Source: Longimicrobiales bacterium | Lineage (GTDB): Bacteria; Gemmatimonadota; Gemmatimonadetes; Longimicrobiales; Gaopeijiaceae | Length of the DNA stretch: 64,000 bases | Direction: 5' to 3' | Assembly: GCA_965204735.1 (NCBI GenBank) | Contig: OZ242008.1 | Coordinates: 1,184,001 to 1,248,000 of the forward strand | In this document: positions 53,072 to 64,000 of the stretch, in pieces | Numbering within the stretch: position 1 is the first letter of the stretch | How the letters are laid out: every line of letters begins with the position of its first letter | Program-made: the position numbers and the translations under genes | Notes under the pieces: model-generated | The model's database searches: none | Told to the model about the DNA's origin: nothing | Seen by the model: only the letters and a program-made list of their open reading frames with translations

Positions 53072-53899
<828 letters not shown>

Positions 53900-53971: not shown

Positions 53972-54976
53972 TTACAGCAGCGACAGCAGCAAGTTGACGG
54001 TCAGCGAGCCGCCCACGTCGCGCACGAACTGGCCCCGTCCCGCGTTGGCGACCTGTTGCAGGAAGGACTCGGCCACGACGTCGGAAACCCCGGTCGTGTT
54101 GATGTAGACGGTAGACACACGGTGCCCGCTCCCCCGAGCGATCTGGGCAGCAGTGAGGATCGAAGAGCTTACCTCCTCGGGGTAGGCCGTGTTGTCGGTG
54201 ACGAGGACGATCACCCGCTGCTGTGCATGAGGGCGCCATTGCATGCGGGCGGCTTCGGCGAGGGCCATCAGAACGGCTTCCGGTCCATCGGAGTTCCTGC
54301 CCCGTCCCACTCCCATGCCAACCGCCAAGTTGTTCACGAAGCCGCGGAACGCGGAACGATTCAGCGTGGGGCCCGAGACCTCCCGCAAAGGGAAGACCGT
54401 CAGAGGCCGTTCCCAGTATCGGTCGCCGAACGCCACGAGCCCGAGGCCCAAGCTGGGCGAGAGGCGGTTCAGGAGGTCGCTCAGCTGGCCCACCTCCGTC
54501 TTCAGGGACGCCACCTGCCGGCCCATGCTGCTGGTCACGTCCAGGGCGATCACCAGGTCCAAGTGCGGGAACTGCGTGACCCTCTCGGCGGGGCGCGTTG
54601 CAGTCGGCCGCATTGGGACCACCGGGGGCGGCGCCGCGGTTGCGATTGACGGGCACTCGGGCTCGGGCGCAACCGACGGGCAGACCGGACACACGGGCGG
54701 ATCGTCCGCGTCTTCGGGCGCAGGGACGGCCGGGCATACGGGTGCCGGCACCGGCAGGCACACGGGGCAGGCGGCTGGTTCCGGCGGAGGCTCCATGGGC
54801 TCCGCGGGCGGGACGACGGCAACGACGGGCGGGGCAGGCGCGACCGGGGCGGGTTCGGCGTTGCGAACGTAGGGGAAGATCACGATCGCGATGAGGATGA
54901 ACGCGCCCATCGCCGATGCGAAGAGGTCGAGGGACGCCATCCCGAAGATGTCGATCTGCCGGTTGTGTCGTCTCAT
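53972..54976 (-). CDS. ExbD/MotB-like TM(Asp) protein with Pro/Cys linker and VWA domain
   Basis: FGMASLDLFASAMGAFILIAIV single TM with Asp; DVTSS MIDAS-like motif, DGPEA, VLVTD. Confidence 0.8.
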   Translation of the reverse strand: MRRHNRQIDIFGMASLDLFASAMGAFILIAIVIFPYVRNAEPAPVAPAPPVVAVVPPAEPMEPPPEPAACPVCLPVPAPVCPAVPAPEDADDPPVCPVCPSVAPEPECPSIATAAPPPVVPMRPTATRPAERVTQFPHLDLVIALDVTSSMGRQVASLKTEVGQLSDLLNRLSPSLGLGLVAFGDRYWERPLTVFPLREVSGPTLNRSAFRGFVNNLAVGMGVGRGRNSDGPEAVLMALAEAARMQWRPHAQQRVIVLVTDNTAYPEEVSSSILTAAQIARGSGHRVSTVYINTTGVSDVVAESFLQQVANAGRGQFVRDVGGSLTVNLLLSLL

Positions 54977-54994
54977 GGCCGAAAACGGTTGTCT

Positions 54995-56395
54995 CTACCG
55001 CCGACGGGTGTAGATCAGCAGCACACCGTTCTCGCCCCGGGTCCCGTACCGGATCCTGGCTTCGAGCCCCGGGATGAACTCCACGCTGGCCACGTCCCGG
55101 GCCGACATCGACTCCAGAAGCCCTTCTGGATCGCCGATCGACATGTCGTCCAGGAACACGGACACGGGCTCGCAAGGCGGTCCGAAAGCACCGGGGAACC
55201 GCCTTATCCTTCGGCGGGACTCGACGCACAACCCTACCCGGAAGCCCGACCTGTCACGCAACTCCCTAATCGTCAAGCTGGGAATGTTGGCCTGCCGGAG
55301 CACTGTGGCCATGGTCGTCACTCGATCCCGGATGGCGTCCATCTCGGTCTCCGTGAGGCCCAGGAAACGAGTGGTCATGTTTCGTCGCGGGTCGCGAGTT
55401 CGCGACGGCGTCGAAACCACAACTGGATCCAGGGGTATCGCTTCCACCGCGAGAGGGAGCCTTAGGCCAAAGGCGTTGCTCAGCAGGGACAGGGAGTCGG
55501 CCCGGAAGACGTATCCCATTTGCTTGGTTTCAATGACGTGGTCGCCTGGCGCCACCCCGACGAAGGCGAACTTGCCCTCCTCGTTGGTATGGGTCGCCTG
55601 CCCCGTGCCCGCAAGAGAGACGGCGGCGCCGACAATCGGTTGCTGCGTCGAATGGTCCAGCACCGTGCCCATGATCGCCACGGGGTCCGAAACCTCGACC
55701 GAGAGGTTCTGCATTCGGGGGCCCGGCCCGTCGATCCTTGCCGGTTCGCCGTCGTTCGACCCGAAGGTGGCCCGCACCAAGACGTCGCGCCCCGTCTCCA
55801 CGTTGCACAGACGGAACTCGCCGCCGATCCCGGACACCGTGGAGACCCTTCCCTGTCCGCCGGCGCTCTCGACGGGACCGACAAGAGCCTCTACCCGGGC
55901 GCCAGGCAACGGCCTCCCGGTGCGGGCGTTGGAGACCACACCGGCCACGTGAGCATCTCCGGCGCCCGGCTGCTCCCTGCACCACGCATCGAGCATCGAC
56001 TCCAGAGAAGGCACGGCCAGGGCCACTTCGGAAGTCGAGCCTGGACGGACGACCACCGGCTTGCCCGCCACCGAAATGCCGTAGTCGTCGAGGCGGGGGT
56101 GGTAGAACGAGACTTCGTACTCGCCGGGGGGCACGTCTTCGATGCGGAAGCGCCCGAATTCGTCGGTCTCTCCGGTGGCGTAGACGCCGATGATGCTCAC
56201 CTGCGCCTCCGCCAGCGGCGCGGCGACGGCGCTGTCGTACACCGTTCCGACTACAGCACCGGCCTGCCCCCCGGCCCGACCGGCCCAGGCGCCGACAAGG
56301 GCAACTCCAGATACGACGGCAACTCGCAACGCGAGCTCGCCCCTCTGCAACCGCCGGCCGTTGCCCGGCAACGCCCCCGCTGGCGTCGACCTCAC
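54995..56395 (-). CDS. secreted carboxypeptidase-regulatory-like domains plus TonB-receptor plug domain, no barrel
   Basis: Signal peptide; three GxVxD/N...PL/IxGAxV beta-sandwich repeats; DVASVEFI...RYGTRGENGVLLIYT. Confidence 0.75.
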   Translation of the reverse strand: MRSTPAGALPGNGRRLQRGELALRVAVVSGVALVGAWAGRAGGQAGAVVGTVYDSAVAAPLAEAQVSIIGVYATGETDEFGRFRIEDVPPGEYEVSFYHPRLDDYGISVAGKPVVVRPGSTSEVALAVPSLESMLDAWCREQPGAGDAHVAGVVSNARTGRPLPGARVEALVGPVESAGGQGRVSTVSGIGGEFRLCNVETGRDVLVRATFGSNDGEPARIDGPGPRMQNLSVEVSDPVAIMGTVLDHSTQQPIVGAAVSLAGTGQATHTNEEGKFAFVGVAPGDHVIETKQMGYVFRADSLSLLSNAFGLRLPLAVEAIPLDPVVVSTPSRTRDPRRNMTTRFLGLTETEMDAIRDRVTTMATVLRQANIPSLTIRELRDRSGFRVGLCVESRRRIRRFPGAFGPPCEPVSVFLDDMSIGDPEGLLESMSARDVASVEFIPGLEARIRYGTRGENGVLLIYTRRR

Positions 56396-57330
56396 TGGCT
56401 GCCGGCCCGGGGCGACGGGGGCCGGCCCTCGGGCGCCTTGCCGCCGGGTTCCGGGTGCTCGGACAACCGGCCCACGAAGTGTCGAAGACAGTACTGGCCG
56501 ATTTGGTTGAGAGCGCCTTCCTCCTTCTCCTGGGTCAGGTGCAGGGCCAACATCAGCACCGCGGCTTGCAGCAGCGCCAGCAACGTCGTGTAGAACGCGA
56601 CACCGAGATCGCCGGTCAGGGTCTGCATCATGTCGGGACCCATCGCCGTCGAAGCCAAGCTGGCACTGGCAAACAGCGTGCCTGCCGTCCGCAAGGCGAA
56701 TGCGATTCCCATGACCGTTCCTACGAAGCCGAGCGTGGGGATCAGCCAGACCAAGTAGCGCACGACGTTGTACCGCAACTCGATTTCGTGCTGGTACAGG
56801 TCCATGGACAGGTTGATCGTCGAGTTCACCTGGTCGATCGATCCGTTGGCCCGAAACTGCAGCAGTGCGCCGGACAACAAGCCCTGCAACATGTACCGTC
56901 GTCCTGGGTCGGAGTCGCCGACGCGTCGTTGCATGGCTTCCAGGTCCTCCGGCCGGAGGGCTGCATCGTCGTCTTCGGAAAGCAGCTTCAAGTCCATCTG
57001 AGCGCGTTCGCGACGGCCCGCCAAGTTGCGGACGAGCAGTTCGCCGCCGGCCGTGCAGAACACAAGCCACATGACGTTCTGGATCGTGAACGGATAGGGG
57101 AATATCCGGGTGTTCCGGTCCAGCAGCAGGTCGGCGGCGACGCTGTCGTGCCCTGCCGGAATGAGATACGAGAGGATGCCGACCAAGACGATGCCGGCGA
57201 GCGCCGAGCCGAACAGGACGACGACGCGGAAGGGGATGTGGTCCTCGCCGCCGGAGCCGGCGAGGGGGAGTGCCACGGGCCACCGGGACGCCGGCGGCTT
57301 CGGCGACCGGCTGGTCAAGGAGCCTGGCAC
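56392..57330 (-). CDS. MotA/TolQ/ExbB proton channel family protein
   Basis: IPTLGFVGTVMGI and LGVAFYTTLLAL signature helices; two additional N-terminal TMs. Confidence 0.88.
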   Translation of the reverse strand: MPGSLTSRSPKPPASRWPVALPLAGSGGEDHIPFRVVVLFGSALAGIVLVGILSYLIPAGHDSVAADLLLDRNTRIFPYPFTIQNVMWLVFCTAGGELLVRNLAGRRERAQMDLKLLSEDDDAALRPEDLEAMQRRVGDSDPGRRYMLQGLLSGALLQFRANGSIDQVNSTINLSMDLYQHEIELRYNVVRYLVWLIPTLGFVGTVMGIAFALRTAGTLFASASLASTAMGPDMMQTLTGDLGVAFYTTLLALLQAAVLMLALHLTQEKEEGALNQIGQYCLRHFVGRLSEHPEPGGKAPEGRPPSPRAGSQ

Positions 57331-58784
57331 CTGGGCAGCCGCACTCCGTTTCTCTGGGGGTTGATCTCCGACTCGAAGCGTCGCAGGCCGCGGGGGATGC
57401 AGCCTGTGAGGAGGTTGTTGTGCAGTGTGAGTCGTCGCAGGCTCCCGAGGTTCTCGAACGTCTCCGGGATTTCGCCGGACAGCTGGTTTCCGTTCAAGGT
57501 CAGCAGCTCGAGATCGGACAGGTTCCCCAGGTCGGGCGGCAGCTCGCCAGTCAGCTGGTTGTTGTGAAGGCGCAGGCGCCTGAGCTTGGTCAGCCGCCCC
57601 AGCTCCGACGGAATCGCTCCCGACAATCGGTTGTTGTCGGCGTACAGGTCCTCCAGCTCGCGCAACGAACCGAACTCCTCCGGGATCGGGCCGGAGAGCT
57701 GATTGCCTTCGAGGTACAAGACAGTCAGCTTGCTCAGGGATCCGATCTCCGGCGGTATGGGACCCGACAGACGGTTGCCGAAGAAGCTCAGGTACGTCAG
57801 GTCGTCAAGGTTGGCCAGTCGTCGCGGCAGCGAACCGCCCAAGTTCTGCCGGCCCAGGTCCAGGCCGTCAACCTGCCCCTGGCGGCCGATCGCGACTCCG
57901 GTCCACGTCACCAAGTTGGCGTTGCGACGCCAGTTGAGCTGCCCCGTAGCGCCCACCAGAGCGCTGGCGGTCGCAAGCAGCACGTCGGGGTCGCTCTCCG
58001 CCGCTTCCGCCGCCGCTTGCGCTTCGGCTAGGCGTTGCGCTTCGGCCAGCCGCTGGGCCTCCGCCAGCATCTCGGCTTCCCGGCGCTCGGCTTCGGCGCG
58101 ACGCTCTTCTTCTGCCCGACGCCGGGCCTCGGTCAGTCGCGCGGCTTCTTCTCGTTCCGCCTGGGCGCGACGCTCCTCTTCGAGTCGCCGGGCTTCCTCT
58201 CGGGCCAGCCGCTCCTCTTCGAGCCGCTCGGCTTCCGCACGCTGCTCCGCCTCGAGCCGTTCCTGCTCGGCCAGCCGCTGGGCCTCCGCCAACCGTTGCG
58301 CTTCGGCCAGCCGCCGGGCCGCCAGCCGTTCCGCCTGCGCTGCGCGACGCTCCGCTTCTTCCAGGCGCTGGAATTCGGCTTGACGTTCGGCCTCGGCCAG
58401 CCGTTCCGCCTCGCTTTGCTCCGCTTGGGCGCGACGCTCCGCCTCGCGACCGGCCGCGAGGAGCGCCGACAAGCTTGCGCCGTCCAGGTACCCGGTCTCC
58501 TCGGCGCCCCGTTCGGCCTGCCACGCTCGCAACGCCGCACGCGCACCCGGCTCCATTTCGCCGTCCGGCTCGCGGCCGTAGTACCCTTCTTCGGCCAGCG
58601 CCCTTTCGACCAGCGCGATGGACTCGGCGTCCAGTTCCAGTTCCGCTTCCGCCGCAACGGCGCGCTCTTCGGGCGTGAGCGACCGGCTCCGCGAGACCCA
58701 CACCACGACCACGGCGCTGGTTGCGAGAACCAGAATCGCAAGACTGTAGAAGAGGTGCCGCCTGCTGATCCGGCGCAGGTCCAC
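57315..58784 (-). CDS. TM anchor + peptidoglycan-binding domain + TolA-like helix + plant-type LRR domain
   Basis: N-terminal TM; LAEEGYYGREPDG...AALRAWQ...TGYLD; about 150 aa E/A/R/Q helix; seven 24-aa LxxxxNxLSGxIP repeats; start GTG 58784 inferred. Confidence 0.82.
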   Translation of the reverse strand: MDLRRISRRHLFYSLAILVLATSAVVVVWVSRSRSLTPEERAVAAEAELELDAESIALVERALAEEGYYGREPDGEMEPGARAALRAWQAERGAEETGYLDGASLSALLAAGREAERRAQAEQSEAERLAEAERQAEFQRLEEAERRAAQAERLAARRLAEAQRLAEAQRLAEQERLEAEQRAEAERLEEERLAREEARRLEEERRAQAEREEAARLTEARRRAEEERRAEAERREAEMLAEAQRLAEAQRLAEAQAAAEAAESDPDVLLATASALVGATGQLNWRRNANLVTWTGVAIGRQGQVDGLDLGRQNLGGSLPRRLANLDDLTYLSFFGNRLSGPIPPEIGSLSKLTVLYLEGNQLSGPIPEEFGSLRELEDLYADNNRLSGAIPSELGRLTKLRRLRLHNNQLTGELPPDLGNLSDLELLTLNGNQLSGEIPETFENLGSLRRLTLHNNLLTGCIPRGLRRFESEINPQRNGVRLPRCQAP

Positions 58785-58786
58785 TC

Positions 58787-59875
58787 CTACCACGTCCACC
58801 TCAGTCCCGCGACGGTTCGACGACCTTCGCGCCCCATGAAGAGTTCGCTGGTCACGGCCCCGTCGGGGCCGTCGCCCAAAGGACCGACGGGGACGGCAAG
58901 CGCAGTGGTAGTAGCCCGGACCGCGGCTTCGATCTCGGACAGCTCCCTCGCGGCCAGGACCCACTGGGTGCCTCCCCACGCCCCGAGTCCGCCGCCGACG
59001 CCCATGATCCACCTTCTGGCCTTTTCTGAGCTAGCCCGTCGGTCCAGGGCGTCCTCGTACTCTTCGGGCGTCTCGAAGTCTTCTGCCGTCGGCTCTCCGA
59101 AGTAGGGGATCCACTCGATCGTCGCGTAGCTTGCTCCCATGAGGAAGAGGCCCCACCACACCTTGGCTCTGCCCGACGAACGCTTTTCCTGGGCTTGGAC
59201 GTACCGTTCGTCGATGGAAGGCGCGGAGGCTTGTCGAAGGTTCAACCCCAGCTTGCGCGTGTTCCGCCAACCGTAGCCCCACTGGAATGCGCCCCAGGCG
59301 CCGAGACCGGCACTCAGGCCAGTGACGACGGATCGGCCCGTTTCGGCAGCTTGGCGCTGGTCCACGGCGGACAGATAGTCTTCGTCGCTGTCGTAGTCCG
59401 CCGTGTCGGGAACCTGCAGGGGCGGAATGTACTCCAGCGCCGCGTAGGCGGCAGCCGCCAGCACGACGCCCCAAATGACCTTCTTCCGTCCCGACCGTCG
59501 GCGCCCCATCTCCCTCTCGTACTGACGCTCCAGGTCGGGTATGGACATCTCGGCGGCGGCCGCCCCTCCGGTCGTCTGGGCGATTCCTCCCGTGGGAACT
59601 CGCATTCCCACTATCTCCACTTCGCTGGCCAGGACGTACCCCACCAAGTTCTCCTGGCCCGTCTCTCCCGGAAGCGAGATCGCGTAGTAAGGGCCGGATT
59701 CGCCGACCCAGTCCACCAGCGTGCCGGCGGAGAGCGTAGTGATGACCGGGCTGGAGGCGTCGGGGTCGAGCCGCACGGAGACCTCGTCCGACACGGTGCG
59801 GACTTGCTGGGCGTGCAGCGTCGCCCCTCCCGACGCAAGCACCAGGAGGGAGACGGCGAAGGCTGATCGGATCAA
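58787..59875 (-). CDS. secreted SH3b-like protein with duplicated hydrophobic hairpin and C-terminal beta-signal-like end
   Basis: Signal peptide; VRLDPDASSPVITTL...GYVLASEV; two SGRxKVxWG...GLGAWGxxQW repeats; ends VAGLRWTW; AAGGA before TTG 59875. Confidence 0.65.
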   Translation of the reverse strand: MIRSAFAVSLLVLASGGATLHAQQVRTVSDEVSVRLDPDASSPVITTLSAGTLVDWVGESGPYYAISLPGETGQENLVGYVLASEVEIVGMRVPTGGIAQTTGGAAAAEMSIPDLERQYEREMGRRRSGRKKVIWGVVLAAAAYAALEYIPPLQVPDTADYDSDEDYLSAVDQRQAAETGRSVVTGLSAGLGAWGAFQWGYGWRNTRKLGLNLRQASAPSIDERYVQAQEKRSSGRAKVWWGLFLMGASYATIEWIPYFGEPTAEDFETPEEYEDALDRRASSEKARRWIMGVGGGLGAWGGTQWVLAARELSEIEAAVRATTTALAVPVGPLGDGPDGAVTSELFMGREGRRTVAGLRWTW

Positions 59876-60237: not shown

Positions 60238-63057
60238 CTACTGGCAGGAGCCGGGCCGGCAGGCGTATTTCGAAGCGTCTTCGATTGTGTACTGCAAGGC
60301 CTCTGTAGCGTCCACATGAAAGGTCTCGCCGTCCACCACGACCGGGCCGCCCAGCCGAATCGAATCGCCGGCCAACGCGTGTCCGTGGTTCGGGCAAAAT
60401 CCGTAACCGGTCTCGTAGTCGTATCTCGTGGCGTCGCCGCTGCACACTTCCGACTTCGGCAAGACCCGGCCGGGACCGCCGATGAACGGAACCCGGCTCG
60501 CACCGATCGACATGATCGTGCCGTAGGTCACTGTTCTGCCGCCGGTGAGGGCAATCTCGCCTTTGTATCCCCAGCCGCTCGGATGAAAGATGTATTCAAC
60601 GCTCTTCCCGATGTAGTACCCAGGATGGTGATATAACCCCAGGTTGTGACCGATCTCGTGCGCGACAACTCCTATGAAGTTATTGCGCCGGATGGGGTGA
60701 TTCACGTTGGGCATCTTGCGGCCGCTGAAACAATACGGGTCGGTAAGGGCGATACTGGGCCATTGGCGTGCATCCTCTAGAGAGTCGCCTTTGTTGCGAA
60801 CGCCTGCCATGCCACAGATACCGCCGCCAGTCCCCGATTGTATTATATGTATCAGATCAACCTTCAACACCGCCCTCGCGCTTTCAGCCAGGCCCGAGGC
60901 TGTTGCATATAGTGCGACATTGTTACGAACCATATTGTCATACTGACAACGGACGAAGTGCTTGTAGTCTTGATAGGCCACAATGACGGGCCGGAATTCG
61001 ATGTTCACTCCAGACCTCTGGAAGATGCCCGTCACCTCAGGAACTCCGACTTCCGTCATCCACTCGGCCCAACCGCCCCGCCAATACTCCTTGTCCAATA
61101 TGAAGGCGACGTCGATCACATACGTCGTGTTCGGATCGGCCTTCCTGCCCAGCCATTTCGCAGTCGCTGAGCGACGAGTCGCACCTGTGCCTCTTGCAAA
61201 CACCATGTCGCCGCCGACGACCTGGAAGAGCTTATCGAATCCGGCTTGCTTGGCACAGTTCAAGGAGCCACGGCCCCCAGTGGAATCGGCATCGATGGAG
61301 AACTCCAGCGACGGCGAGCCCCCGAACGACAACGCATAGCGGCCGGCCTGATAGACCCGCGTTGTGTCGCCCCAGACCCACCGCCATGCGTCTTGAGGGC
61401 CGGGCGGCTGGACCTCGACTACCGTCTGCGAGCCCGTCGCGACCACCGACACCTGGTCGTCGCAGATCGGGCCGCAGCTGTCCGTGCCGCCCCAGCGCCG
61501 CGCCGCCAGGTCCCAGCCGCTGTCGTGCGCGTTGCCCACCGTCTTCACCTCCAGCATCCGCAGCACGTTCGCCACCGCGCCCGGATCGCCCGCGTCCAGC
61601 GGCAGCCAGCCCGCCGCGCCCGCCGGGCCGGGCTCGTACCCGTCGATCGCGATCTTCACCACCGTCCGGGGATCGCCCGTGCTCGCGCTCGTCTCCGCGC
61701 CGTCGCTCGACACGAACGACCAGCCCACGCGAGGAACCGTCGTCACCTTCATCGCACGCGAGCAGTTGTTCCCCGTCTCCCGCTCCCCCTCCACCGCCTC
61801 CACGCACGCGCCGACCCACGACACGCTCCACAACGCCGACGCCGAATCCGCACCGTACTCCGCCGCCAGCCTCGCCGACCCGCCGCGCGCCAAAGCCTCC
61901 ACTTCCCGCGGCTCGCCCACGCGCTCGTCCGTCGCCTCGATCACCGAGTCCGGCGACACGTACGCCGCCACCGTCGTCGCCGCTGCCGACCCGGCGTCCT
62001 CGCCCACGTTGCGCACCTCGACCTCGAACTCGACGCTGCCGCCCGGCGCCAACGCCACACTGTCCCTCGACACTGCCGCCGCCAAGTCCGGCCTGCCCGT
62101 CACCGTCACTCTGATCGACTCCGAGCAGTTGTCGCCCGTGTCCGCCTCCCACTCCACCGGGTCCACGCACTCGCCCACATAGAGGATCGCCCCCAGTTCC
62201 GCCGCCGGGCTCACCGTGAACGAGCCCGTCCTGCTCGCCGACTCGCCCGGACCCAGCGCTGGCACTGGGGACGGCGCACCCACCACATCGTCCGAGGTCG
62301 TGATCATGTTGTCGGTCGACACGAACGTTCTCGCTCGGGTCGCTGCCGCCGCCGTGTCGCCCCGGTTGCGAACGGTGGCCACGTACTCGAAGCTGCCCCC
62401 CGCCCAAGTCGCCGCGCCGGCGGGCGACAGGCTCGCCGTCAAGTCCGGCAGGACCGCTAACGCCGTCGCCCGGACCTCGGCCGACACGCCGTCGCGCACC
62501 GTTGCCGCCAGCACTTGCTCGCCGCCCGAGTCCCCAAGCGTCCATCTTGTGGACGCGAGCCCGGTCGAATCGCTTCGCGCCGCCCAGGGATCGGCTGTGC
62601 CGTGGCCCTCCGCCGGCACGAACGTCACGCTCGCACCCGGCACTGGCGAACCGCCCGCGTCCAAGAGCCGCACGACGACAGGCTCCCGAAGCGACTCGCC
62701 GACACGGGCCCACTGGTCGGCGCCCGCAAACGGCTCCACCACTGCGACCGCTCCTTCGTGCGGCTCCGTGCCCGACTCGCCGCACGCGGCAAGCCCCGAT
62801 GCGCTGAAGATGAGTGCAAGAGACGGCCACTTGCAACGACTTGGACCACTTCGCCTCGGCAACACTGCCACAGAAAACGTACATCCCAGCTTGCGACGTT
62901 CCTTGCCACGCCGAGCTTCAGCACCCGTGCACGGCTCCGGTTGCGGCGTCGCCTCAGCGTCGGCCCATCGCACCGCCGTGCCGACACCATGCAAACACTT
63001 CAGCCAACCGATTCGTTCCAACTGGCGTCTCGTCTCATCATATTCATTCATTGTCAA
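60238..63057 (-). CDS. lipoprotein with Ig-like and two CARDB-like domains and C-terminal metzincin peptidase (true start probably near 62870)
   Basis: GLAAC lipobox; PDL...VRNxG...NNCS repeats; HEIGHNLGLYH zinc motif with TIMS Met-turn. Confidence 0.8.
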   Translation of the reverse strand: MTMNEYDETRRQLERIGWLKCLHGVGTAVRWADAEATPQPEPCTGAEARRGKERRKLGCTFSVAVLPRRSGPSRCKWPSLALIFSASGLAACGESGTEPHEGAVAVVEPFAGADQWARVGESLREPVVVRLLDAGGSPVPGASVTFVPAEGHGTADPWAARSDSTGLASTRWTLGDSGGEQVLAATVRDGVSAEVRATALAVLPDLTASLSPAGAATWAGGSFEYVATVRNRGDTAAAATRARTFVSTDNMITTSDDVVGAPSPVPALGPGESASRTGSFTVSPAAELGAILYVGECVDPVEWEADTGDNCSESIRVTVTGRPDLAAAVSRDSVALAPGGSVEFEVEVRNVGEDAGSAAATTVAAYVSPDSVIEATDERVGEPREVEALARGGSARLAAEYGADSASALWSVSWVGACVEAVEGERETGNNCSRAMKVTTVPRVGWSFVSSDGAETSASTGDPRTVVKIAIDGYEPGPAGAAGWLPLDAGDPGAVANVLRMLEVKTVGNAHDSGWDLAARRWGGTDSCGPICDDQVSVVATGSQTVVEVQPPGPQDAWRWVWGDTTRVYQAGRYALSFGGSPSLEFSIDADSTGGRGSLNCAKQAGFDKLFQVVGGDMVFARGTGATRRSATAKWLGRKADPNTTYVIDVAFILDKEYWRGGWAEWMTEVGVPEVTGIFQRSGVNIEFRPVIVAYQDYKHFVRCQYDNMVRNNVALYATASGLAESARAVLKVDLIHIIQSGTGGGICGMAGVRNKGDSLEDARQWPSIALTDPYCFSGRKMPNVNHPIRRNNFIGVVAHEIGHNLGLYHHPGYYIGKSVEYIFHPSGWGYKGEIALTGGRTVTYGTIMSIGASRVPFIGGPGRVLPKSEVCSGDATRYDYETGYGFCPNHGHALAGDSIRLGGPVVVDGETFHVDATEALQYTIEDASKYACRPGSCQ

Positions 63058-64000
63058 TTTTTGTGATTAGGGTCAACGTACCTTGCGGCTCAGGCGCCTC
63101 TTGGAGCAACCGCGAGTGCAACCGCGAGTAGTCCGACTCAGCTTCCTCCACGACCAGCGAGTACTCCCCTCTGGTGTCGGCGGAGTAGCTCCCCGCGAGC
63201 ACCGTCACCTTTCCCGAGTCGGGCATGACGAACTCGATCTGGCTGTCCGAGCCCAGAGACCGATAGTCGTCCGAGTACTGCACCTCGCCGTCGCGCAGCA
63301 CGTACAGCACCGCGTCCACATCGCTCGACCGAGCCCGCACCACGACCCGCTTGCCCGAATCCGCCTCGACAGTCCACCTGCTCAGACGATGTCCCCGGAT
63401 CGGATCGACGAAGCTGGACCTGTCGGCCGAAGACAGAGAGTCAGACACCAAGTCCGGAACGGACAGGGGGGTGTCTCTGGACTCAGGCTGCGCCTCTTGG
63501 AGCAACCGCGAGTAGTCCGACTCAGCTTCCTCCACGACCAGCGAGTACTCCCCTCCGGTGTCGGCGGAGTAGCTCCCCGCGAGCACCGTCACCTTTCCCG
63601 AGTCGGGCATGACGAACTCGATCTGGCTGTCCGAGCCCAGAGACCGATAGTCGTCCGAGTACTGCACCTCGCCGTCGCGCAGCACGTACAGCACCGCGTC
63701 CACATCGCTCGACCGAGCCCGCACCACGACCCGCTTGCCCGAATCCGCCTCGACAGTCCACCTGCTCAGACGATGTCCCCGGATCGGATCGACGAAGCTG
63801 GACCTGTCGGCCGAAGACAGAGAGTCAGACACCAAGTCCGGAACGGACAGGGGGGTGTCTCTGGACTCAGGCTGCGCCTCTTGGAGCAACCGCGAGTAGT
63901 CCGACTCAGCTTCCTCCACGACCAGCGAGTACTCCCCTCCGGTGTCGGCGGAGTAGCTCCCCGCGAGCACCGTCACCTTTCCCGAGTCGGGCATGACGAA
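63044..64000 (-). CDS. protein of tandem PPC (pre-peptidase C-terminal)-like domains, 5' end outside window
   Basis: VRARSSDVDAVLYVL...SDD...DSQI...GEYSLVV repeated every 128 aa. Confidence 0.7.
   Translation of the reverse strand, partial: FVMPDSGKVTVLAGSYSADTGGEYSLVVEEAESDYSRLLQEAQPESRDTPLSVPDLVSDSLSSADRSSFVDPIRGHRLSRWTVEADSGKRVVVRARSSDVDAVLYVLRDGEVQYSDDYRSLGSDSQIEFVMPDSGKVTVLAGSYSADTGGEYSLVVEEAESDYSRLLQEAQPESRDTPLSVPDLVSDSLSSADRSSFVDPIRGHRLSRWTVEADSGKRVVVRARSSDVDAVLYVLRDGEVQYSDDYRSLGSDSQIEFVMPDSGKVTVLAGSYSADTRGEYSLVVEEAESDYSRLHSRLLQEAPEPQGTLTLITKIDNE
63121..64000. repeat. near-identical 384-nt tandem repeats (2 full + partial)
   Basis: Units start at 63121, 63505, 63889; one substitution noticed between the first two. 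Confidence 0.93.

Follow-up and report, generated by a model that had tools for sequence, protein, structure and literature searches.

A reduced, kinase-less form of a predicted TolQ-like/TPH-vWA motor cluster in one family of Gemmatimonadota

Introduction

The closest described relatives of the gene cluster reported here are motors put forward as predictions by Williams-Jones et al. (2025; PMC12204202, section 8 and Fig. 4c-d), in which a TolQ-like channel subunit and von Willebrand factor A proteins carrying a trans-pore helix (TPH-vWA) are modelled as a 5:2 complex with an Asp of the helix lying within a ring of Thr residues; section 8 of that paper reports no function for them. The cluster that we compare with these motors occupies positions 53972-59875 of a 64,000-nucleotide stretch of a Longimicrobiales (Gemmatimonadota) genome, hereafter the window, and encodes an ExbB-like protein, a TPH-vWA protein, a leucine-rich repeat (LRR) protein, an SH3b protein and a plug-type protein. 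It is a reduced form of a system that in other phyla contains a kinase, FHA, PP2C and protease proteins, and we find it in one Gemmatimonadota family.

In its motor genes the window resembles the TPH-vWA systems described in section 8 closely: the tolQ-like gene has no syntenic tolR, exbD or motB, the vWA protein has a conserved Asp helix with no SHLS motif, and the presumptive pentamer subunit carries the Thr ring, so that by sequence the pair fits that family. It differs in having a single vWA gene where heterologous vWA pairs are typical (such pairs occur in 4 of our 80 related loci, L070-L073), and in adding the linked receptor remnant, SH3 and plug genes; the words kinase, leucine, SH3 and Gemmatimonad have no occurrences in the main text of PMC12204202. 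The correspondence was made by description and through a look-alike, L143, and not with the Idiomarina query of that paper: L143 is a paired-vWA cluster that fits the published description, and its ExbB is homologous to the window family (hhalign 99.5%), as is its vWA protein (92.8%). This paired cluster, at L143 2122-11988, also holds PEGA/FGE-type and TPR-type genes, and the same Halioxenophilus genome carries a kinase-linked cluster, L058. The sequence-only reading of the window had presented the motor system as uncharacterised; the pair was already predicted in print in section 8, and what is new is the reduced form with its receptor remnant and SH3 protein. We found no published description of a reduced motor form with a series running from pseudokinase to no kinase, in a search that left subscription journals largely outside.

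Results

The relation of the window cluster to its parent system is evident from the neighbours of the ExbB-like gene. The locus set comprises the best 80 of 82 ExbB loci, 27 from Gemmatimonadota and 53 from other phyla, with short contigs scored as misses in both sets. Among the 53 loci of other phyla, FHA genes are present in 51, PP2C genes in 47, kinase genes in 46 and trypsin-FHA genes in 39; the corresponding numbers for the 27 Gemmatimonadota loci are 0, 0, 3 and 0. The FHA/PP2C/kinase-linked loci (L027-L080), from Latescibacterota, Acidobacteriota and Pseudomonadota, have ExbB proteins 38-62% identical to that of the window, and their clusters comprise seven to ten genes with a phospho-switch, including receptor kinases with variable outer domains (ankyrin, Sel1, FGE-sulfatase, PEGA, PPC and peptidoglycan (PG)-binding). 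Bacteria in culture that carry this form include Aliiglaciecola lipolytica E3 (L063) and Nioella ostreopsis (L036). The window shares with this form the same ExbB and TPH-vWA families, and sister loci of the parent form have a receptor kinase with a membrane helix and a PG-binding domain; it differs in lacking FHA, PP2C and protease, in belonging to a family whose kinase is dead or deleted, and in having gained SH3. No FHA was found in the window's own genome (G000, 98% complete) or in four of five related genomes, and the sole kinase match in the own genome belongs to a gene of a different type, 1,359 residues long; the missing parts have therefore not been relocated elsewhere.

A quick ExbB tree places the Gemmatimonadota clade beside Acidobacteriota loci (SH-aLRT 93-99), and of 300 genomes that sample the phylum evenly, 13 carry the ExbB family, all from the own family (13 of its 48). 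This distribution is most simply read as a single acquisition and a later reduction.

Two other sites in the own genome encode proteins of kindred domain type. The 1,359-residue protein, NERD-like plus kinase, is the product of the first of three large genes at G000:C1:2468000-2478800 (L103), which resemble a BREX/Pgl-type defence locus. An orphan PP2C gene of parent-cluster type, 46% identical to those of L027 and L029, lies on the minus strand at G000:C1:2432445-2433320 (L102 7443-8318), adjoining a YhgA-like transposase gene and far from the cluster, in a genome with neither FHA nor receptor kinase.

The LRR protein (57315..58799, minus strand; possible starts at 58799, 58793 or 58784) has a short basic cytoplasmic tail of roughly 10-15 residues, one membrane helix, a PG_binding_1 domain, a Glu/Arg/Ala stalk of ~150 residues and a capped LRR domain with six full 24-residue repeats and one atypical repeat; Pfam recognizes PG_binding_1 and LRR families, and the LRR runs to the C-terminus with no TolA/TonB C-domain by Pfam or TIGR profiles. 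In Gemmatimonadota relatives the same ectodomain occurs with a full-length, a half or no kinase domain. It is fused as kinase-TM-PG-stalk-LRR (TM, transmembrane helix) in a single frame in L059, L159, L163, L164 and L165 and, with an in-frame stop within the stalk, in L001; it carries only the first half of a kinase in L004 and L160; and it has no kinase in L161, in 24 further loci (two of the 24 being cut by contig ends) and at the window locus, where no kinase remnant was found. Compared with kinase-bearing L059, the window protein shows 59% identity in the PG region and 58% in the LRR; its PG region is 59-62% identical to kinase-fused orthologues and, at 43-44% identity, also matches the active kinases encoded by L027 and L032, sister loci from Acidobacteriota. 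By these sequence comparisons the LRR protein is the ectodomain of a receptor kinase without its kinase. Measured against Hanks-type receptor kinases in general, the likeness being the TM-PG-stalk-LRR ectodomain that orthologues carry fused to a kinase domain, the window protein differs in having no kinase domain and its relatives in having domains that lack two catalytic residues. Plant LRR receptor-like proteins and receptor-like kinases likewise include kinase-less beside kinase-bearing forms, with 24-residue repeats bearing an xGxIP motif. The window LRR shares the repeat length and xGxIP; the resemblance is an analogy only, the window protein being bacterial, periplasmic and equipped with a PG-binding domain and stalk.

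The order of loss can be read from the kinase domains that remain. The residues that we take to be the beta-3 Lys and the DFG Asp are missing in all six full-length receptor-fused domains of the Gemmatimonadota relatives, whereas the Lys, the HRD Asp and the DFG Asp are kept in 74 of 74 full-length kinases at loci of other phyla (11 partial ones were not scorable). Since all six domains are dead and the parent kinases intact, catalysis was likely lost first, in the ancestor of the Gemmatimonadota family, and the domain deleted afterwards. A tree in which the kinase-less forms are a single clade is rejected (approximately unbiased (AU) test, p 1.3e-5; 18 selected full rows, L024 omitted), which implies at least two deletions unless L059 regained the domain; a first version of the tree, with an AU p of 0.16, was discarded since 13 of its 19 rows held the PG part only. 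Word-index searches with the PG region returned three proteins, from which no count of fused and unfused forms was obtainable. A metagenome scan with the LRR protein gave 18 loci, nearly all on the low-complexity stalk alone, and was discarded.

The receptor remnant is retained together with the motor genes. An LRR gene stands beside ExbB and vWA in 27 of 27 Gemmatimonadota loci and an SH3 gene in 25 of 27, the two misses being contig ends; the sequence-only reading had made its candidate motor system stand or fall with conservation of the accessory genes, and this holds for LRR and SH3 and fails for plug, a neighbour of vWA in 2 of 33 related loci. The SH3, receptor, ExbB and vWA genes stay together across four gene orders: that of the window; SH3-LRR-ExbB with a convergent vWA gene (25 intact or partial loci plus L001); vWA-SH3-SH3-receptor-ExbB (L004, L159, L160, L163, L164 and L165, with L162 dropped as a duplicate of L004); and SH3-LRR-ExbB-vWA-plug (L161). 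Median dN/dS over pairs, which are non-independent, of 22-24 kinase-less loci is 0.19 for vWA, 0.24 for ExbB, 0.28 for LRR and 0.37 for SH3. The four genes are thus kept together under purifying selection.

In the window itself the five open reading frames are co-oriented on the minus strand, in the order SH3b, LRR, ExbB-like, plug-type, TPH-vWA. As first described, they are joined by overlaps or by gaps below 20 nt: if the longest plausible start is taken for each gene, the four junctions measure -13, -16, -4 and +18 nt, values that vary with start choice, the LRR, ExbB and plug genes having other in-frame starts. Contigs of a sponge metagenome (an independent run, ~90-93% identity) span all four junctions in identical order, so the gene order is not an assembly artefact; a sponge-host habitat for the genome is suggested by these matches. 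A search of the cluster for sigma-70 promoters gave no match, and terminator-like sites number 1 against 3.7 expected; a look for RNA data sets holding the stretch listed none.

The channel subunit (56392..57330, minus strand) matches Pfam MotA_ExbB (PF01618) at 35 bits (cut-off 22.9). Its predicted model (pLDDT 88, pTM 0.80) retrieves only ExbB or TolQ structures in the first 20 listed PDB rows of a Foldseek search (probability 1.00, best E 0.004), while a PDB sequence search with the ExbB profile gives MotA alone, at E 0.16; beyond the ExbB/TolQ fold the model predicts one additional N-terminal membrane helix. The lumen threonines T187 and T231 (numbered from a start at 57276) are both present in 81 of 81 aligned rows, at positions outside the peptide patterns used to fetch the loci. 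The TPH-vWA protein (53972..54976, minus strand) carries Asp17 in its N-terminal membrane helix; the residue is the same in 55 of 55 aligned rows, and the helix alignment contains no SHLS motif; these features and the PF01618 match bear out the initial assignment of a MotA/ExbB/TolQ channel with an Asp-helix vWA partner. Its vWA domain (Pfam VWA, 36 bits; integrin alpha-1 I domain by profile, E 1e-9) carries the MIDAS residues D146, T148, S150 and D261, present in 27 of 27 Gemmatimonadota rows, and is joined to the helix by a Pro/Cys-rich tether of ~100 residues (99-113 across these rows). Within the tether (54565-54860) CxxC repeats lie amid the prolines, with one to four in each protein across 27 rows; they may stiffen the tether by disulfides or bind metal.

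An Asp-helix partner lies within 8 kb of ExbB in 69 of the 80 loci, in keeping with the earlier expectation that ExbB and vWA pairs occur elsewhere. There is no ExbD at the cluster; all three ExbD matches of the genome are elsewhere, adjoining other ExbB genes. By analogy with ExbBD, TolQR and the 2025 models, the pair is predicted to be an ion-driven inner-membrane motor that would assemble 5:2 and rotate. It shares the ExbB/TolQ fold, Thr ring and Asp helix with ExbB-ExbD-TonB and TolQ-TolR-TolA; it differs from them in the extra N-terminal helix and in a vWA domain that replaces the ExbD/TolR domain, and the cluster has no SHLS transducer, tolB/pal or barrel. A complex prediction with four ExbB chains (residues 55-272) and two vWA helices (residues 1-42), a non-native stoichiometry, scored 0.17 against a mark of 0.32 and weighs neither for nor against the assembly.

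The SH3b protein (58787..59875, minus strand) is an exported protein and a core member in this Gemmatimonadota family only, its gene being found in 0 of the 53 other loci. It has a signal peptide, an SH3b domain (residues 24-88; Pfam SH3_3 at 25 bits, below the cut-off of 27), a pair of long helical hairpins that include hydrophobic stretches, and a beta-hairpin at the C-terminus whose last residue is Trp. In an AF2 model (mean pLDDT 72, pTM 0.38) the first domain matches SH3b folds at Z 9-11, and a fold search with the C-terminal part returned generic helical hairpins only. Homologues at E<=1e-30 amount to 15 representatives among 1.84 billion, and single-hairpin relatives share the same C-terminal ending; the protein is likely outer-membrane associated. 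An ESM Atlas search with the C-terminal part gave a best score of 0.86 with no family, DUF5683 and Borrelia P13 at 0.80-0.81 being leads only.

The plug-type protein (54995..56395, minus strand; possible starts at 56395, 56350 or 56329) is exported, with three CarboxypepD_reg matches in Pfam followed by a SusC-like plug-type end (TIGR04056, SusC N-terminal part, E 8e-9; TIGR04057, E 0.017). It had been called a barrel-less plug protein; the absence of a barrel stands, there being 0 residues after the plug-like region, which sets it apart from TonB-dependent transporters, and the plug label is weak, Pfam Plug giving no match at E<=0.1. Its gene adjoins the vWA gene in L001, with a 4-nt overlap, in L161 and in a remnant in genome G002; an unlinked 43% paralogue occurs in the own genome, and at E<=1e-30 relatives without linkage to the cluster are present in 7 of 24 related genomes, G002 counted. 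This argues against the proposal that plug is a core part, and we regard the protein as an optional exported accessory. The idea that its gene was a passenger from an inversion is weakened by its place beside vWA in L001, L161 and G002 and by the L001 copies being slightly closer to the window plug (45-46%) than to the unlinked paralogues (37-42%).

Discussion

The domain content, the motor residues, the kinase ancestry, the loss of the phospho-module and the linkage of the genes are observed; assembly, contacts and output go beyond them. On this basis we propose, with middling confidence, that the cluster encodes an ion-driven motor whose metal-binding vWA head tugs on a target in the envelope, the receptor remnant being a wall-anchored scaffold. 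Ion flow past Asp17 would rotate the vWA dimer inside the ExbB-like ring, and the MIDAS heads on their ~100-residue tethers would grip and tug the target. The receptor remnant would brace the machine on the wall through its PG-binding domain, which may provide, in trans, the anchoring to the wall that is missing from the vWA subunit; the LRR would grip a fixed partner, for which the SH3 outer-membrane protein or the target of the vWA head is the most likely candidate, and the SH3 protein would be the outer anchor or the target. The output may be the handling of outer-membrane or surface proteins.

Several observations weigh against this proposal. The vWA gene lies on the strand opposite ExbB in 25 of 27 Gemmatimonadota loci and is therefore not co-transcribed with it there. 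ExbB was not found in three of three same-genus genomes (92-98% complete), one of which, G002 (L111), keeps the regulator, vWA, part of plug and a frameshifted SH3 gene; the absence of ExbB and this insertion sequence (IS)-disrupted remnant mean that the system is dispensable. The receptor membrane helix is the least conserved segment of the protein (21% mean identity to the window in 28 rows, vs 56-57% for PG and LRR), with a dN/dS of 0.5, so that any link to the motor would run through periplasmic domains. A dN/dS of 0.2-0.4 falls short of strict constraint, and L059 may have got its dead kinase back through recombination, in which case fewer losses would be counted. In G002 an IS-like fragment (L111 10199-10987) occupies the place of ExbB and LRR, and parts of SH3 and plug have been replaced by it as well.

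The alternative that survives best, though we think it unlikely, is that the receptor remnant is still a sensor, in which ligand binding to the LRR switches the motor on directly and bypasses the kinase step. Descent from receptor kinases with varied outer domains would favour it, as would a stalk held at 169-212 residues and a receptor gene placed immediately before ExbB in every arrangement seen. Such a sensor would have to signal through the least conserved part of the protein, the membrane helix, to a very short cytoplasmic tail, and its binding face is not diversifying: pN/pS is 0.26 on the concave face of the LRR vs 0.61 on the convex, and the more constrained concave face fits a fixed partner.

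The sequence-only reading had taken the LRR protein for a TolA-like transducer, an arm that docks on the side of the pentamer and carries force to the outer membrane as TolA or TonB does. We now consider this improbable. The single membrane helix, the long charged helical stalk that could span the periplasm, the terminal binding domain, the overlap of the gene with ExbB and a weak TIGR02794 (TolA) match over the stalk (33 bits vs a cut-off of 59) are in its favour, but in an alignment of 28 rows the helix has neither an SHLS motif nor a conserved His and is poorly conserved, there is no TolA/TonB C-domain, the protein descends from receptor kinases, a PG-binding domain at its base would pin the arm, and PMC12204202 proposes the vWA subunit itself as the transducer.

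A little less probable still is the view of the cluster as a relic that the parent system left behind, decaying slowly and without a function today. Its patchy occurrence in the phylum sample, the disrupted remnant in G002, the in-frame stop in the L001 receptor and one TAG reported within the ExbB match of G308 are what decay would leave; against it, dN/dS is well below 1 for all four genes, the Asp, Thr ring and MIDAS are invariant, and the four genes stay together through rearrangements. Least probable is a Zorya-like anti-phage or anti-epibiont envelope sensor, for which the patchy, island-like distribution and a weak match of the membrane helices to ZorA in PADLOC (E 6e-4) can be cited. 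That match spans 90 of the 505 positions in the profile, and a long ZorA tail is missing; among six proteins scanned there was no OmpA-type ZorB, effector (as already noted from the sequence) or other PADLOC match; and the recognition surface is conserved, not diversifying.

A stronger version of the motor-and-scaffold proposal, which we offer only tentatively, is that the parent receptor kinase was already a physical subunit of the motor and that this family kept only its mechanical role: four proteins would form a machine spanning the envelope, with the LRR receptor, its kinase gone, bracing the motor on the wall and coupling it to the SH3 outer-membrane protein.

The surroundings of the cluster are as follows. 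Directly after the vWA gene lies a gene for a 275-residue protein (53072-53899, minus strand) with no Pfam match and the look of a receiver plus AraC-type regulator; it has a 67% paralogue in the own genome, and homologues occur near a few related loci with no fixed position. A run of 36 G at ~53406-53441, read as poly-Pro, may be a variable tract or an assembly artefact. On the other side (60238-64000, minus strand) are genes whose products are a metalloprotease of CARDB/Big/M12 type and a protein built from exact PPC repeats. Large exported repeat proteins, including LRR plus Ig-like proteins of 1,200-1,600 residues, also flank the cluster in L004, L161, L163, L165, L111 and L105; they are possible clients of the motor, but most convergent-type loci have no such neighbours.

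Conclusions

TPH-vWA motors are known as predictions only, and the window family is a natural four-gene minimal version of them, a small construct for tests of structure and function. The graded series from active to dead to half to no kinase shows which parts the motor still needs without phosphorylation: the wall-binding domain of the receptor, the stalk and the LRR were kept after phosphorylation was lost. That the receptor ectodomain was retained suggests that receptor and motor are physically linked, a connection hidden in the parent clusters. If the stronger proposal is true, a signalling receptor would on more than one occasion have become a structural component of a rotary motor at a symbiont surface. 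LRR proteins are listed among the eukaryote-like proteins of sponge bacteria in PMC12993501, whose accessible text never mentions ExbB. The present family suggests a possible role for one class of these 'eukaryote-like' LRR proteins of sponge-associated bacteria: work inside the envelope, not host mimicry.

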